Of a stretch of 64,000 bases of DNA, positions 2,027-8,276 are shown in pieces. The stretch's first letter is position 1. Every line of letters begins with the position of its first letter. The translations under genes and the position numbers were made by a program. This DNA is from an uncultured Alphaproteobacteria bacterium. GTDB taxonomy: Bacteria; Pseudomonadota; Alphaproteobacteria; Rhizobiales; Xanthobacteraceae. The notes below the pieces were generated by a model. That model saw nothing but the letters and a program-made list of their open reading frames with translations, did no database searches and had not been told where the DNA came from. Location: the NCBI GenBank assembly GCA_963802585.1, contig CAWDJS010000008.1:8940-72939 (forward strand), given 5' to 3'.

Positions 2027-2226
2027 CGCTTGATAACACTTCGGTACTTGCACGGACTTTGAAATTATGGCGATCGTGTCATGGTCGATGATCGTTGCCG
2101 GCATCTGATTCGACTTCGGAATGGGCCCGGAACGTCCTGAGCAAGAATGCTCCGCACCGCGCATGCGATGCACTCAGTTCGGCGTATCCGAGACAGCTCC
2201 ATCAATCATCCGAAGGATGCTTGCAA

Positions 2227-3021
2227 ATGCAGACCATCGTGTTGGCCACCCAAAAAGGCGGCAGCGGCAAGAGCACGCTTGCCATCGGGCTGGCGATGGC
2301 CGCCAGAGAGGCCGGGCACACCGTCCGCCTGATCGAGACCGACCAGCAGGGCACCCTGTCGAACTGGCAGCGCCGCCGCGGCCCCGCCAAACCGCTGGTC
2401 GAGGCCGTCCACAACGCGCGTGAGATCGAATCCCGGCTGCAGTCCCTCGCGTTCGCCGGCGTGACGCTCACGATCATCGACACCGCCGGCGGCATCACGG
2501 CCGCGACCACGGAGGCCGTCCGTTATTGCGATCTCTGCATGATCCCGGCACGTCCCTCGATCGTCGACATCGAAGCCAGCGCCGCGACGCTCGAGCTCGT
2601 GCGCGCCTGGCGAAAGCCGTTCGCCTTCATCCTCAACCAGACGCCGATCCGCAGCCAGCGCCTCAACGGCGCCGCCGAGTCGATCGGCGAGGCCGCCGCG
2701 CGTGACCTGAACGATGTCCTCGCCCGTCCCTATATCGTCATGCGCAACGACCACCAGGACGCGCTCGCCGCCGGCCTTGCGGTCAGCGAGCTCTCGCCGT
2801 TCGGCAAGTCGGCCGACGAGATCCGCGACCTGTGGCGGTGGATCGACACGCGTATGAATGGCCACGTCGCGGTCAACGAGGAAATCAGCGACGACGTCTC
2901 GGACGTCGAGTTTCCCATCATCCTCTCGCCCGAACACACCAAGGCCCCCGCCGTGGCTGGGATGGCGCTGCAGGCTCAGCGGGACCCCCGCGACGACATC
3001 ACCTGGGACGCGGGCCTGTAA
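2227..3021 (+). CDS. ParA/MinD-family ATPase (orphan, no parB)
   Basis: Deviant Walker A QKGGSGKST, plus ETDQQG and IIDTAG motifs. Start at MQTIVLA. Confidence 0.88.
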   Translation: MQTIVLATQKGGSGKSTLAIGLAMAAREAGHTVRLIETDQQGTLSNWQRRRGPAKPLVEAVHNAREIESRLQSLAFAGVTLTIIDTAGGITAATTEAVRYCDLCMIPARPSIVDIEASAATLELVRAWRKPFAFILNQTPIRSQRLNGAAESIGEAAARDLNDVLARPYIVMRNDHQDALAAGLAVSELSPFGKSADEIRDLWRWIDTRMNGHVAVNEEISDDVSDVEFPIILSPEHTKAPAVAGMALQAQRDPRDDITWDAGL

Positions 3022-3030
3022 CGGCGCGCA

Positions 3031-3909
3031 TCACTTCTGACACTGCGGACACCAGAAGGTCGAACGTCCGTTCTGGGTGAAGCGGCGGATCACGCCGCCG
3101 CTTCCGTTTCCGCACTTCTCGCCTTCGCGGTCATAGACCTGGAAGGAATGCTGGAAATAGCCGAGCTCACCCGAGGTCTGGCGGTGGTCGCGCAGCGACG
3201 AGCCGCCGGCCTTGATCGCCTGGTTCAACACCTCGTGAATCGCGTCGACCAAACGCTTGGCGCGGTCGTTCGGCTCGCCCTTCCTGTCGGCAAGCGTCGA
3301 GGCTTGCCGCTTCGGCGACAAATGCGCGCGATAGAGCGCCTCGCAGACATAGATATTGCCGAGCCCCGCCACCACGCGCTGGTCGAGCAAGGCCGCCTTC
3401 AGCGTGGTCGACTTGCCGGCACAGGCGCGCGCCAGCATGGCGGCATCGAATTCATTGCCGAGCGGCTCAGGGCCGAGCCCCTTGAGCAGCGGCTCATCAT
3501 CGAGCGCATTCCGCGCGATGATCTTCATGTAGCCGAAACGGCGCGGATCGTTGAACACGATGTCGGCGCCGGAGGACATCCGAAACAACACGTGGTCGTG
3601 GGCGGCATCCTTGCCGCGCGGATGGTGGAACTCGCCCAGTGTGCTGCCATCGTCCTTCATCTCGACGCGAAATGAGCCCGACATGCCCAGATGCATGAGC
3701 AGGACGTCGCCGGAGCCGAGGTCGGCCATCAGATATTTGGCGCGGCGCCCAAGCCCGGTGACGGTCTGGCCGGTCAGCCGCGCGACAAAATCCTTCTGGA
3801 AGGGAAAACGCAGGTCCTTGCGGCGGGCCTCGGCGTGCAGAATTTTTGCACCTTCCATGACCGGCTGCAGGCCGCGGCGGACGGTCTCGACCTCGGGCAG
3901 TTCAGGCAT
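3031..3909 (-). CDS. mutM: Formamidopyrimidine-DNA glycosylase
   Basis: [10 protein letters not shown]-terminus, GLGNIY H2TH motif, C-terminal [11 protein letters not shown] finger. Confidence 0.97.
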
Positions 3910-4004: not shown

Positions 4005-4766
4005 ATGGATCGGCCGGACCAGACCACCCATTTTGGCTTCCGCGACGTGCCGCTGGAAGAAAAGCAGACGCTGGTGAACGACGTGTTTCACAGCGTGGCA
4101 CGGCGTTACGACCTGATGAACGATTTGATGTCGGCGGGCCTGCACCGGGCCTGGAAGGACATCATGGTCACCACGCTCAACCCGCCCAAGAACGACAGGC
4201 CTTACGCGCTGCTTGATGTCGCCGGCGGCACCGGCGACATCGCCTTCCGCGCCGCGCAGGCCTCTGGCGCGGGATTCCGCGCGACCGTCTGCGACATCAA
4301 TGCCGACATGCTTGCCGTCGGCCGCGACCGCGCCGCCAAGCGCCATCTCGACGACCGTGTGGCATTTGTCGAGGGCAATGCCGAGGCGCTCGCCTTTCCC
4401 GACCACAGTTTTGACGGCTACACCATCGCCTTCGGCATCCGCAACGTGCCGCGGATCGATCTGGCGCTCACTGAGGCCTTCCGCGTGCTCAGGCCGGGCG
4501 GGCGATTGCTGTGCCTGGAATTTTCCTCTGTCGATGTGCCGGGGCTCGACCGGCTCTATGATCTCTTCTCCTTCAGGGTGATCCCCGAGCTCGGCCGCGC
4601 GGTGACCGGCGACGCCGAGTCCTATCGCTATCTCGTGGAGTCCATCCGCCAATTTCCGAAACCGGCGGCATTTGCCGACATGATCCGCACCGCCGGCTTC
4701 TCCCGCGTCAACTGGCAGACGCTTTCCGGCGGTATCGTGGCCTTGCATTCGGGCTGGCGTTTGTGA
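4005..4766 (+). CDS. ubiE: Ubiquinone/menaquinone C-methyltransferase
   Basis: [30 protein letters not shown] and GRLLCLEFS motifs. GGAG RBS upstream of ATG 4005. Confidence 0.96.
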
Positions 4767-6337
4767 TCTCGGCTCTCACCCACATCTCGCGGCTCGCGCG
4801 CGCCGGCTTCGTGTTCGCACACGAAGGCGTCTTTGGCGCCGTCGATCCCTCGCTGGTGCCGCCGCCCGGTCAACTCGCGCTGAAGCTCGCGCGGCTGGTC
4901 GAGCGCCGTGGCGCCAAGTCCGGGCCGAGATTGTCGCGCGCGCTGGAACGGATGGGCCCGGCCTATCTGAAGCTCGGCCAGTTCCTTGCGACCCGGCCTG
5001 ACGTGGTCGGTGTCACCATGGCGCGGGACCTCGAAGCGCTGCAGGACCGCTTGCCGCCGTTTTCGCAAAGCGAGGCGGAAGCGGCGATATCGACCTCGCT
5101 GGAACGCCCGGTATCGCAGGCCTTTGCTGCTCTCGGGCCGCCGGTCGCCGCCGCCTCGATCGCGCAGGTGCATCGCGGCGAGGTACTGCGTGACGGCGTG
5201 CGCCATCCGGTCGCGGTGAAAGTATTGCGGCCCAACGTGGCCTCGCGTTTCCGCCGCGACCTCTCCGACTTCTTCTTCGTTGCGCACAAGGCCGAAGCCT
5301 ATTCCGCGGAAGCGCGGCGACTGCGGCTGGTCGAAGTCATCAACACCATGCAGCGTTCGGTCGCGATGGAGATGGATTTGCGGCTGGAGGCCGCCGCGCT
5401 CTCCGAGATGGCCGAGAACACCCGCGACGATCCGGATTTCCGCGTGCCCGTGGTCGACTGGGACCGCACCACGCATAATGTGCTGACGATGGAGTGGATC
5501 GACGGCATTGCGCTCAGCGATCACGCCCGGCTCGAGCAGGCGCAGGTCGATTTGGCCGATCTCGGCCGCAAGGTGATCCAGAGTTTCCTGCGCCACGCAC
5601 TGCGCGACGGTTTCTTCCACGCCGACATGCATCCGGGAAATCTCTTCCTCGACAAGGAAGGCCGCCTGGTCGCGGTCGATTTCGGCATCATGGGAAGGCT
5701 GGGCCTGAAGGAGCGGCGCTTCCTCGCCGAAATCCTGCTCGGCTTCATCACCCGCAACTATCGCCGCGTCGCCGAGGTGCATTTCGAAGCGGGCTATGTG
5801 CCCTCGCATCACTCGGTGGAGAATTTCGCGCAGGCGATTCGCGCCATCGGCGAGCCGATCCACAACCGCACCGCCGAAGAAATTTCCATGGCGCGGCTGC
5901 TGACCCTGCTGCTCGAAGTCACCGGCCTGTTCGACATGCGCACGCGGCCCGAGCTGATCCTGCTGCAGAAGACCATGGTGGTGGTCGAGGGCGTGGCGCG
6001 CGGCTTCGATCCAAAACTCGACATCTGGAAGACCGCCGATCCCGTGGTGCGCGAATGGATCGAGCGCAATCTCGGGCCGCTCGGGCGGATCCAGGGCGCG
6101 GTGTCCGGCGCCGGCGAGCTGGGTCATTTGCTTTCCAAGCTGCCGGAGATCGCCAGCCGGGCGGTGACCGTGCTGCAGCAGTTGGAAGACATGACCCGGG
6201 AGGGTCACATGCTGTCGTCGGACACGATCGAGGAATTGGGGCGCAAAGAGGCGAAGAAAGCCCGTTTGAGCACGATTGCGCTCTGGGTCATCGCTGTCGC
6301 CTCCGTTGGAATTTTGATTGCCATGACCCGCCTTTGA
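4763..6337 (+). CDS. ubiB: 2-polyprenylphenol 6-hydroxylase / UbiB kinase-like protein
   Basis: [24 protein letters not shown] and [10 protein letters not shown] motifs. 4-bp overlap with ubiE. Confidence 0.96.
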
Positions 6338-6374
6338 TTGCGATGCAATCACTATAATGATAGCATTGCTGTCA
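6335..6374. promoter_or_regulatory. Two tandem 17-bp palindromes flanking TATAAT upstream of coaBC (putative RHH operators)
   Basis: TGATTGC-GAT-GCAATCA (6335-6351), TATAAT (6353-6358) and TGATAGC-ATT-GCTGTCA (6358-6374). Confidence 0.65.
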
Positions 6375-6393
6375 TTGCCGGGAGGAAGCCGTC

Positions 6394-7821
6394 ATGGCCA
6401 GCCTGACCATCCGAAAGCTCGACGACGCCGTCAAAACCTATCTCCGCCTGCGCTCGGCCGGCAATGGCCGGTCGGTCGAGGAGGAGGTCCGGGTGATCTT
6501 GGGCGAGCTGATTCAGGGCCAGCCCGAGGGGGCTGCGCTGGCGGCACCAGCTCCCGCCCGATCGCTGCAGCCCCGCAGCGGGTCCGGTGAGGCGCGCGTC
6601 ACCCTGATCATCGGCGGCGGTATTGCCGCCTACAAGGCGCTGGACCTGATCCGGCGGCTGAAGGAGCGCCACATCCGTGTCCGCTGCGTGCTGACCAGGG
6701 CCGCGACGCAATTCGTCACGCCGCTGGCGGCGAGCGCGCTGTCGGGGGAGCGGGCCTACACCGACCTGTTCGATCCCGAGAGCGAATTCGACGCTGGCCA
6801 CATCAGGCTGGCGCGTGACTGCGATTTGATCGTGGTGGCGCCCGCGACCGCAGACCTGATGTCGAAGATGGCGCATGGCGCCGCCGATGATCTCGCCAGC
6901 GCCATCCTACTCGCGGCAAGCCGGCCGATCCTGCTCGCCCCCGCCATGAACCCGGTGATGTGGAGCAATGCCGCAACCCGCCGCAACGCCGCGCAGCTCG
7001 CGCGCGACGGCGTCGCCATGGTCGGCCCGAATGCGGGCGAGATGGCGGAGCGAGGCGAAGCCGGAATCGGCCGCATGGCGGAGCCGATCGAAATTGCCGA
7101 TGCCGCCGAGCGCTTCCTGCGTCCGGTGCTGCCGCGTCCGCTCGCGGGCAAGCGCGTGCTGATTACGGCCGGCCCCACGCATGAGCCGATCGACCCCGTG
7201 CGCTATATCGCCAACCGCTCCTCCGGCAAACAGGGTTTTGCCATTGCCGCCGCCGCGCAAGCCGCGGGCGCCGACGTGGTGCTGATCTCCGGCCCGGTCG
7301 AACTCGACGATCCCAACGGCGTGCATGTCGTGCGGGTCGAATCCGCGCGCGACATGCTGAGCCGGGTGGAGGCCTCACTGCCGGCGGACATCGCGATCTT
7401 CGCCGCGGCGGTGGCCGACTGGCGCGTCGCCAGTGAAGGCGGGCAGAAGCTGAAGAAGACCGATACGGCGATGCCGCCGCTGGCGCTGGTGGAAAATCCC
7501 GACATCCTCGCCACCATCTCGCATTTGAAGGAGCGCCGGCCACCGCTGGTCATCGGCTTCGCCGCCGAGACCGAGCACCTCATCGACAATGCCAAGGCAA
7601 AACTCGCGCGCAAGGGCTGCGACTGGATTGTCGCCAACGACGTTTCGCCCGCGACCGGCGTCATGGGCGGCGACCGCAACACCGTGCATCTGCTCACCCG
7701 GCACGGCACCGAGATCGACGTCGACTCCTGGCCGGTCATGACCAAGGAGCAGGTCGCGGTGGAATTGATCGCGCATGTCGCGAAGGAATTTTCGTCCAAG
7801 AGCGCGGAGAAAACCTCTTGA
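6394..7821 (+). CDS. coaBC: Bifunctional CoaBC with an N-terminal FitA-like ribbon-helix-helix domain
   Basis: [51 protein letters not shown] and GFAAET motifs. The first ~42 aa ([11 protein letters not shown]...[12 protein letters not shown]) are RHH-like. Confidence 0.95.
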
Positions 7822-8276
7822 GCAGCGCTATCCGTGTGGATATCCGACAATTGCCGCATGGCGAAGGCTTGCCGCTACCGTCCTATCAGAGCACGCATGC
7901 GGCCGGACTCGATCTGCTGGCCGCCGTCGCCGAGAACGCGCCGCTCGTTCTCGCGCCGGGCAAGCACGCCCTGGTCCCGACCGGACTCGCCATCGCGCTG
8001 CCGGAAGGCTTCGAAGCACAGGTGCGGCCGCGTTCGGGGCTGGCCGCGAAGCACGGCGTCACCGTGCTCAATTCACCCGGCACGATCGACGCCGATTATC
8101 GCGGCGAGATCCAGGTGATCCTGATCAACCACGGCGCCGAGCCGTTTACGATCAAGCGCGGCGAGCGGATCGCGCAGATGGTGATCGCGCCCGTGGTTCA
8201 GGCCGAGCTCGTGGCGGTTGCGATGCTTTCGGACACCGATCGCGGCAGCGGCGGCTTCGGCTCAACCGGCCGCTAA
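7818..8276 (+). CDS. dut: dUTP diphosphatase
   Basis: [24 protein letters not shown] and [10 protein letters not shown] motifs. Confidence 0.97.

Follow-up and report, generated by a model that had tools for sequence, protein, structure and literature searches.

A FitA-like ribbon-helix-helix domain fused to CoaBC, with antitoxin-type operators, is predicted to repress the coaBC-dut genes

CoaBC, the bifunctional enzyme of coenzyme A (CoA) synthesis, is encoded between ubiB and dut in a DNA stretch of 64,000 nucleotides from an uncultured, Bradyrhizobium-like bacterium of the Xanthobacteraceae (Alphaproteobacteria; contig CAWDJS010000008.1), hereafter the window. This CoaBC begins with a FitA-type ribbon-helix-helix (RHH) domain, as found in type II antitoxins, which a flexible linker joins to a normal CoaC-CoaB enzyme. 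Comparison with relatives indicates that the RHH domain stems from a toxin-antitoxin (TA) module, and we consider the whole reading, in which the domain represses the gene that encodes it, probable. Judged from the sequences and their comparison, autorepression of coaBC-dut by RHH-CoaBC is very probable. Feedback on pantothenate kinase is regarded as the main control of CoA synthesis and, to our knowledge, the transcriptional control of coaBC is essentially uncharted.

Results

The first-pass annotation of the window had read the start of CoaBC as an RHH domain followed by a Pro/Ala linker and the beginning of CoaC, and both the sequence and the Pfam domains bear this out. In a search with profile hidden Markov models (HMMs), FitA-like_RHH (PF22513) spans residues 2-38, scoring 53.8 bits for the whole protein (cut-off 27), and residues 1-65 alone reach 57.4 bits and match positions 1-37 of the 39 of the profile. 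The protein also reaches 393.1 bits against the CoaBC equivalog TIGR00521 (NCBIfam; cut-off 219.7), matching positions 5-391 of the 392 in that profile, and it has the CoaC as well as the CoaB domain. Among solved structures, the first 65 residues match only FitA of Neisseria gonorrhoeae (PDB 2H1O and 2BSQ; aligned residues 2-44), and the FitA sequence that had been quoted for comparison is correct. An AlphaFold2 (AF2) monomer model, made with 45 homologues, has helices at residues 11-24 and 28-40, disorder at residues 44-64 (predicted local distance difference test, pLDDT, below 50) and then the Rossmann fold of CoaC.

The catalytic and DNA-binding domains lie in one polypeptide, whose reading frame is open throughout and conserved in many genera, and this coaBC is the sole copy in the genome. 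Translation includes the RHH domain, as had been assumed, the ATG and a Shine-Dalgarno sequence being located 5' of the RHH codons. No in-frame ATG, GTG or TTG occurs at the start of CoaC and, before codon 110, such codons occur only at positions 34, 36 and 99; because the CoaC boundary offers no alternative start, we take the fused chain to be the working enzyme. An internal start producing an RHH-less enzyme is unlikely, since the only candidates, GTG34 and TTG36, lie inside helix 2 and are unconserved. The stretch GAGGAGGAGG (window positions 6475-6493), which specifies the EEE residues of RHH helix 2, resembles a Shine-Dalgarno sequence and lies 8 nt before the in-frame GTG codon 34, which relatives do not conserve.

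The linker is present in all loci, with a variable sequence and length (RHH plus linker amount to 66-93 residues). At about positions 500-760 of one locus (L123, genome G739), the RHH open reading frame (ORF) and coaBC are in different frames, the shift lying inside the Pro/Ala linker; an indel in the assembly would explain the shift, as would a genuine frameshift that parts the RHH domain from the enzyme.

The fusion had been expected to be common to relatives, and it occurs in approximately 85 of the 148 species sampled evenly from the family of the window, four of the 85 having first looked RHH-less owing solely to long linkers, as well as in further genera outside that family. It was met in Bradyrhizobium, Nitrobacter, Afipia, Tardiphaga, Pseudolabrys and other Xanthobacteraceae, and in Mesorhizobium, Phyllobacterium, Brucella, Zhengella and Rhizobiaceae. 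When the order was sampled evenly, only two families had it, and a class-wide sample showed it nowhere outside those two families. The best 120 database relatives all possess PF22513 and the flavoprotein domain, the full-length ones also possessing DFP, and the PF22513-PF02441-PF04127 architecture is found in more than 100 proteins among the matches listed. These fused relatives are named plainly CoaBC in the source databases, so that the feature is invisible in current annotation. In one database protein (P0117, 623 amino acids), the downstream dut is fused too, so that RHH, CoaBC and dUTPase form a single chain.

The interval between ubiB and coaBC (56 bp, 6338-6393) had been described as holding two 17-bp palindromes 23 bp apart. 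The sequences, TGATTGC-GAT-GCAATCA (6335-6351) and TGATAGC-ATT-GCTGTCA (6358-6374), and the 23-bp distance between their centres proved right; palindrome 1 does not lie wholly in the gap, its first three bases being the ubiB stop codon (TGA, 6335-6337). The region reads, in order, TGATTGCGATGCAATCA (6335-6351), c, TATAAT (6353-6358), TGATAGCATTGCTGTCA (6358-6374), tgcc, GGGAGGAAG (6380-6388) and then the ATG, and TGATAGCA, which matches a half-site given for FitA in the first-pass annotation, does occur verbatim at 6358-6365, as had been noticed. The perfect TATAAT reported between the palindromes is present as well, its last T serving as the first base of palindrome 2. It fares less well as a promoter element: no -35 hexamer lies at 16-18 nt from it, and the 6-nt spacer differs in every relative. 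Because a strict sigma-70 scan of positions 6200-6500 reported no promoter, and because the hexamer is unconserved, we do not take TATAAT as the -10 box. A conserved candidate promoter inside the two palindromes is suggested by TTGCGA (6338-6343)-N17-TAGCAT (6361-6366), which recurs as TTGCAn-N17-TAGCAT in Bradyrhizobium loci and which has a counterpart in Xanthobacteraceae (TTGCAA-N17-TAAnnT, as read from the upstream sequences); it scores only 8/12 against the consensus and thus falls below the strict scan. Whichever promoter is used, the operators overlie both its core and the start region, an arrangement that speaks for repression.

The specific operator is unique in the 8.58-Mb genome. 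The 17-mer TGATTGCANTGCAATCA, searched with up to 1 mismatch, occurs once, at the coaBC site, and at 2 mismatches only two genome matches appear, the operator of a TetR gene and a site inside an ORF, both of them unrelated. The N-terminus of CoaBC is also the only strong FitA-type RHH that a profile search detected in the genome. With one repressor domain and one target in the genome, the circuit therefore looks self-contained. We rejected a wider regulon, since the genome contains 10 copies of the loose motif TGNNNGCANTGCNNNCA for approximately 9.8 expected, i.e., without enrichment, the two 2-mismatch matches being those mentioned above. On contig C17 of the same genome, a TetR-like gene and a divergent gene encoding a 498-aa protein are separated by a large palindrome (about 210845-210891) that contains TGATTGCAATGCAATAG; this palindrome is probably the TetR operator and resembles the coaBC operator by chance.

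The annotation had also proposed to test whether the palindromes co-occur only with RHH-bearing coaBC genes, and the comparison of loci came out in that sense. We scored the palindrome as TGNNNGCANTGCNNNCA, a loose pattern in which up to 1 mismatch was tolerated, over the 300 nt 5' of RHH-coaBC genes and the 400 nt 5' of RHH-less ones. A palindrome of the TGnnnGCA-n-TGCnnnCA type was found in front of 85 of the 90 RHH-coaBC genes, as compared to none of the 44 RHH-less genes (Fisher's exact p ~4e-30, a value inflated by shared descent). The RHH-less control set is a fair one, because 27 of its 44 loci keep ubiB directly 5' of coaBC, as in the window. The palindromes are centred at about -50 and about -28 from the ATG, both sites being present in 60 loci. 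Almost all of the 90-nt regions 5' of 80 orthologues contain TGATTGCA-n-TGCAATCA or close variants, in arrangements that comprise two palindromes in Bradyrhizobium, three half-sites at 9-bp steps (TGATTGCAtTGATTGCAaTGCAATCA) in many Xanthobacteraceae, and a single palindrome in Mesorhizobium, where a further half-site abuts the ATG.

In loci of the Mesorhizobium type (L068-L080 and L129-L132), this third half-site, TGCAATCA, lies within the last 10 nt before the ATG at approximately 40 bp from the main palindrome; an oligomeric repressor may thus loop the DNA or bind at several sites. Residue 3 of the RHH domain is Thr or Arg where the half-sites start with TGAC (L145, L146 and L148) and Ser in the other RHH loci, where they start with TGAT; it may be a specificity contact. 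We set aside this covariation of residue 3 with base 4 of the half-site as evidence, since it involves only two to three lineages.

One could suppose that a different regulator binds the palindromes, the fused RHH domain having another target or none. The genome does encode one other weakly RHH-like protein, of 180 amino acids with an Arc-like RHH (contig C30, 636-1178, minus strand), which scores only 25 bits against PF22513. However, its strand sequence is different and it is not conserved with the operator, which is found only where a FitA-like RHH, fused or free, is encoded immediately 3'. A second FitA-type protein as the true partner of the operator was rejected, this weak Arc-like protein being the sole other match, and we regard the intervention of a different regulator as extremely improbable.

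The relatives also speak for the capture of a TA antitoxin domain together with its operator, which had been conjectured from the window. Five RHH-less relatives harbor a free FitA-like antitoxin and a PIN toxin between ubiB and coaBC, namely G809 and G745 (from the window's own family), G683 and G423 (Mesorhizobium-like) and G630 (from a third family). The free antitoxins have 81-91 amino acids, with a distinct tail, and match PF22513 with E-values of 1e-14 to 1e-18. The PIN toxins (135-142 amino acids; PF01850 confirmed in three, G809, G423 and G630) are encoded 3' of the antitoxin, and the gene pair abuts the start of coaBC, which in these genomes already lies behind the TA promoter. Palindromes of the same kind (TGATTGCAaTGCAATCA, TGATTGCAtTGCAATCA, TGACTGCAtTGCAGTCA or TGACAGCAaTGCTGTCA) stand 5' of the free antitoxin genes; in that of G809, TGACTGCAaTGCAATCA, only 7 of the 8 pairs match, and TGATTGCA half-sites lie shortly before it. 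Because the same type of palindrome precedes each free antitoxin, we regard the palindromes as the antitoxin's own operator. In the ubiB-coaBC interval of G423 (locus L146), two tandem FitA-like RHH genes (1305-1514 and 1517-1771) stand ahead of one PIN gene.

In genome G586, a fusion was caught soon after its formation. Compared to G423, with flanks that are 87% identical, G586 misses approximately 670 nt that correspond to the end region of the antitoxin and the whole PIN gene, and its RHH domain joins CoaBC in frame through a sequence that is 5' leader in G423. As read from this alignment, G586 represents an independent deletion.

Regarding the window itself, no PIN ORF was found beside the RHH, which runs straight into CoaBC, and no C-terminal toxin-binding region of an antitoxin was found in the protein, residues 39-66 being the variable, disordered Pro/Ala linker. 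The inverted-repeat operator that FitAB and VapBC modules have in their own promoter region is represented by the two palindromes (6335-6374), as a predicted operator. With neither a toxin nor a toxin-binding tail, the locus is not a toxin-antitoxin system; the sequences indicate that the fusion is a TA module that lost its toxin, and that this happened more than once. A CoaBC-core tree of 136 loci requires at least 8 changes to account for the fused state, of which well-supported branches force 6; the TA-bearing loci are scattered among empty and fused ones and, within one genus, nested among fused ones. From this tree and the scattering of the TA loci, we conclude that the locus cycles between empty, TA and fused states and that the fusion arose more than once. 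A single origin was rejected on account of these changes and of the G586 deletion.

The repeated switching between empty, TA and fused states would also agree with the view that the RHH domain binds the operators for other ends, either silencing incoming FitAB-type modules with the same operator (anti-addiction) or blocking read-through from ubiE-ubiB, and so would the overlap of palindrome 1 with the ubiB stop codon. Nevertheless, a protein that has lost the toxin-binding tail cannot neutralize a toxin, the genome has no second copy of the operator, and the sites stand at fixed distances (about -50 and -28) from the coaBC ATG, as expected for control of coaBC. We hold such other ends to be highly improbable.

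Selection on the RHH domain was measured in 81 loci. The ratio of nonsynonymous to synonymous substitution rates (dN/dS) is 0.26 for RHH codons 2-37, vs 0.19 for an equal stretch of CoaC. Residues T5, R7, A22, S27, E29 and R33 of the RHH are invariant and S3 is conserved at 98%; S3, T5 and R7 are likely the DNA-facing residues. In view of this ratio and these conserved residues, while the linker varies, the RHH domain is under purifying selection as a protein. Such selection is difficult to reconcile with an inert remnant, the RHH codons of which would be kept merely because they bring an inherited promoter-proximal ribosome-binding site and start codon, DNA binding having been lost. An inert remnant could well result from a deletion inside a TA operon already driving coaBC, which is how the fusion arose, given that a deletion that purges the toxin must retain promoter and start codon. 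Yet the dN/dS of the RHH is near that of the catalytic domain, T5, R7, S27, E29 and R33 are invariant across families, the non-coding palindromes are retained in 85 of 90 loci, distant genera included, and a neutral domain would decay as the linker did. We therefore regard an inert remnant as very unlikely.

Discussion

FitAB and other VapBC modules are known to be autorepressed: dimers of the antitoxin sit on operator half-sites in the promoter of the module and are bridged by toxin dimers (PMC3378870, PMC3920265). As the comparison of relatives shows, a FitA-like antitoxin/PIN-toxin module formerly stood between ubiB and coaBC, with coaBC-dut directly 3' of it. A deletion removing the toxin-binding tail and the toxin gene joined the RHH in frame to CoaBC and left the promoter and operators of the module in place. 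By homology with FitAB and VapBC, we propose that the RHH domains of two CoaBC chains now form a dimer, and such dimers would fill the four 8-bp half-sites that overlap the candidate -35 and -10 boxes and the transcript start, thereby blocking RNA polymerase and possibly also read-through from ubiB. The outcome would be a simple negative feedback on the amount of CoaBC and Dut.

CoaBC is known to form large oligomers, and its core, for that reason, probably provides the bridging and avidity that the PIN toxin dimer provides in FitAB. A further step would be that the CoaBC core has replaced the PIN toxin as the scaffold that bridges the RHH domains, with CTP, 4'-phosphopantothenate, CoA, flavin mononucleotide (FMN) or the assembly state setting how many RHH pairs reach the DNA; we put this forward tentatively, as rather doubtful. 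We consider it unlikely that RHH-CoaBC is a ligand-gated trigger enzyme, the RHH occupancy of which responds to CTP, 4'-phosphopantothenate, cysteine, CoA, FMN or CoaBC assembly, so that transcription senses the flux through the pathway and not only the amount of protein. PutA, an RHH-enzyme fusion in which repression depends on the catalytic state, sets a precedent for such gating, and the 28-residue disordered linker, which varies in length but is never missing, tethers the RHH beside the CoaC core. The lack of linker conservation, however, argues against a specific docking interaction, and plain negative autoregulation accounts for all of the observations. If the scaffold reading were true, bacteria would have repeatedly built a metabolite-sensing transcriptional switch for CoA synthesis from a TA module that captured the promoter of an essential operon.

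Several points weigh against autorepression by the fused RHH. First, FitA alone binds DNA far more weakly than FitAB. Second, the AF2 monomer gives residues 2-7 as a short helix and not as a strand (pLDDT 62-77), as is expected when the dimer partner is missing. Third, with the strict sigma-70 scan reporting no promoter, the overlap of promoter and operators is deduced from the candidate boxes. Fourth, 5 of the 90 fused loci have no full palindrome under the scoring criterion used, though half-sites remain. Fifth, the part of the differential RNA-sequencing (dRNA-seq) tables of Bradyrhizobium japonicum USDA 110 (PMC4842269) that was available contained neither the gene names nor the operator sequences. 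Sixth, correction for descent leaves only 6 independent contrasts on the CoaBC-core tree (sign test, median p 0.06); on average, operator and RHH change together in 5.2 of these 6, and none of them shows the reverse pattern.

Similarly to FitA of the N. gonorrhoeae FitAB system (2H1O and 2BSQ), the RHH of CoaBC belongs to PF22513 (aligned over residues 2-44), 8-bp half-sites form an inverted repeat in the promoter region of its gene, and homologous free FitA-like/PIN pairs occur at the same locus in relatives. In contrast to FitAB, the coaBC locus has neither a toxin gene nor a toxin-binding tail, the RHH being covalently joined to an essential enzyme. Furthermore, the half-sites are adjacent at coaBC (1-bp spacer), whereas those of FitAB are separated and bridged by the toxin dimer, and the regulated product is a metabolic enzyme instead of a TA pair.

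PutA of enterobacteria comprises an RHH, a proline dehydrogenase and a pyrroline-5-carboxylate (P5C) dehydrogenase, and acts as a self-repressing trigger enzyme with operators in its own promoter region. Like PutA, the present protein has an N-terminal RHH fused to a bifunctional flavoenzyme, with an enzyme and a repressor (here a predicted one) in one chain. The two proteins are unrelated in RHH family, in enzyme and in pathway, the known switch of PutA (flavin reduction and membrane binding) has no indicated equivalent in CoaBC, and the RHH of CoaBC differs from that of PutA in having a traceable TA origin. BirA and NadR likewise act in cofactor biosynthesis and, via a fused DNA-binding domain, repress genes of the pathway to which they belong. 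Their domain is a helix-turn-helix and not an RHH, and these two proteins use a reaction intermediate as corepressor and have no link to mobile elements.

Antitoxins exapted as transcription factors are known to keep their DNA-binding domain after parting from the toxin and to be used in host regulation (PMC8987985). Those are free-standing regulators, whereas the RHH described here is fused to the enzyme that it would control and, in contrast to the described cases, the empty, TA and fused states are all visible among relatives. Our search of the literature found no paper describing an RHH-CoaBC fusion or an RHH control of coaBC.

Together, these data suggest that a large group of Hyphomicrobiales, with soil, symbiotic and animal-associated members, controls the essential coaBC-dut genes through a repressor domain borne by the enzyme. 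The locus also offers a rare stepwise record of how a selfish TA module is tamed, by insertion before an essential gene, loss of the toxin by deletion, and persistence of the DNA-binding domain and operator as a host circuit, seemingly more than once. The present analysis contributes the RHH-less negative control, the genome-wide uniqueness of the operator and the measure of selection; its main contribution is the origin of the fusion, as revealed by the free TA modules and the recent deletion. The fusion is of interest for being widespread, unannotated, mechanistically testable and evolutionarily transparent.

Layout of the locus

The coaBC ORF extends from the ATG at 6394 to position 7821, and the start of dut overlaps the coaBC stop by 4 nt; the two genes are presumably co-transcribed. 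The features of the region are collected in Table 1.

Table 1. Features of the ubiB-coaBC-dut region. Positions are those of the window; residues are numbered from the CoaBC start; half-sites are 8 bp long.
Feature	Position	Strand	Basis
ubiB (ABC1 atypical kinase-like), 5' neighbour of coaBC	4763..6337	+	ORF; Pfam PF03109 E 1.3e-75
Operator palindrome 1, TGATTGCgaTGCAATCA, two half-sites with 1-bp spacer	6335..6351	.	Conserved 5' of RHH-coaBC, centre about -50 from ATG
Candidate -35 box TTGCGA, within palindrome 1	6338..6343	+	Predicted
TATAAT hexamer between the palindromes, peculiar to this genome, of doubtful function	6353..6358	+	Sequence
Operator palindrome 2, TGATAGCAtTGCTGTCA	6358..6374	.	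Site centred about -28 from ATG in 60/90 RHH-coaBC loci
Candidate -10 box TAGCAT, within palindrome 2	6361..6366	+	Predicted; part of TGATAGCAT or TGCTAGCAT, conserved across the genus
Strong Shine-Dalgarno sequence GGGAGGAAG, 5 nt 5' of ATG	6380..6388	+	GGAG-type sequences at the same place in relatives
FitA-like RHH domain, residues 1-38	6394..6507	+	PF22513 E 1.8e-14
Pro/Ala/Gly-rich flexible linker, residues 39-66	6508..6591	+	Variable sequence and length; AF2 pLDDT <50 for residues 44-64
CoaC domain (phosphopantothenoylcysteine decarboxylase, flavoprotein), residues 68-236	6595..7101	+	PF02441 E 6.7e-29
CoaB domain (phosphopantothenate-cysteine ligase, DFP), residues 250-434	7141..7695	+	PF04127 E 4.1e-71
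dut (dUTPase)	7818..8276	+	ORF; PF00692 E 2e-34

Upstream of the ubiE-ubiB-coaBC-dut row, the window contains an ORF for a ParA-like P-loop ATPase (2095-3021) and a minus-strand gene (3031-3909), the product of which, as read from its translation only, resembles formamidopyrimidine-DNA glycosylase.

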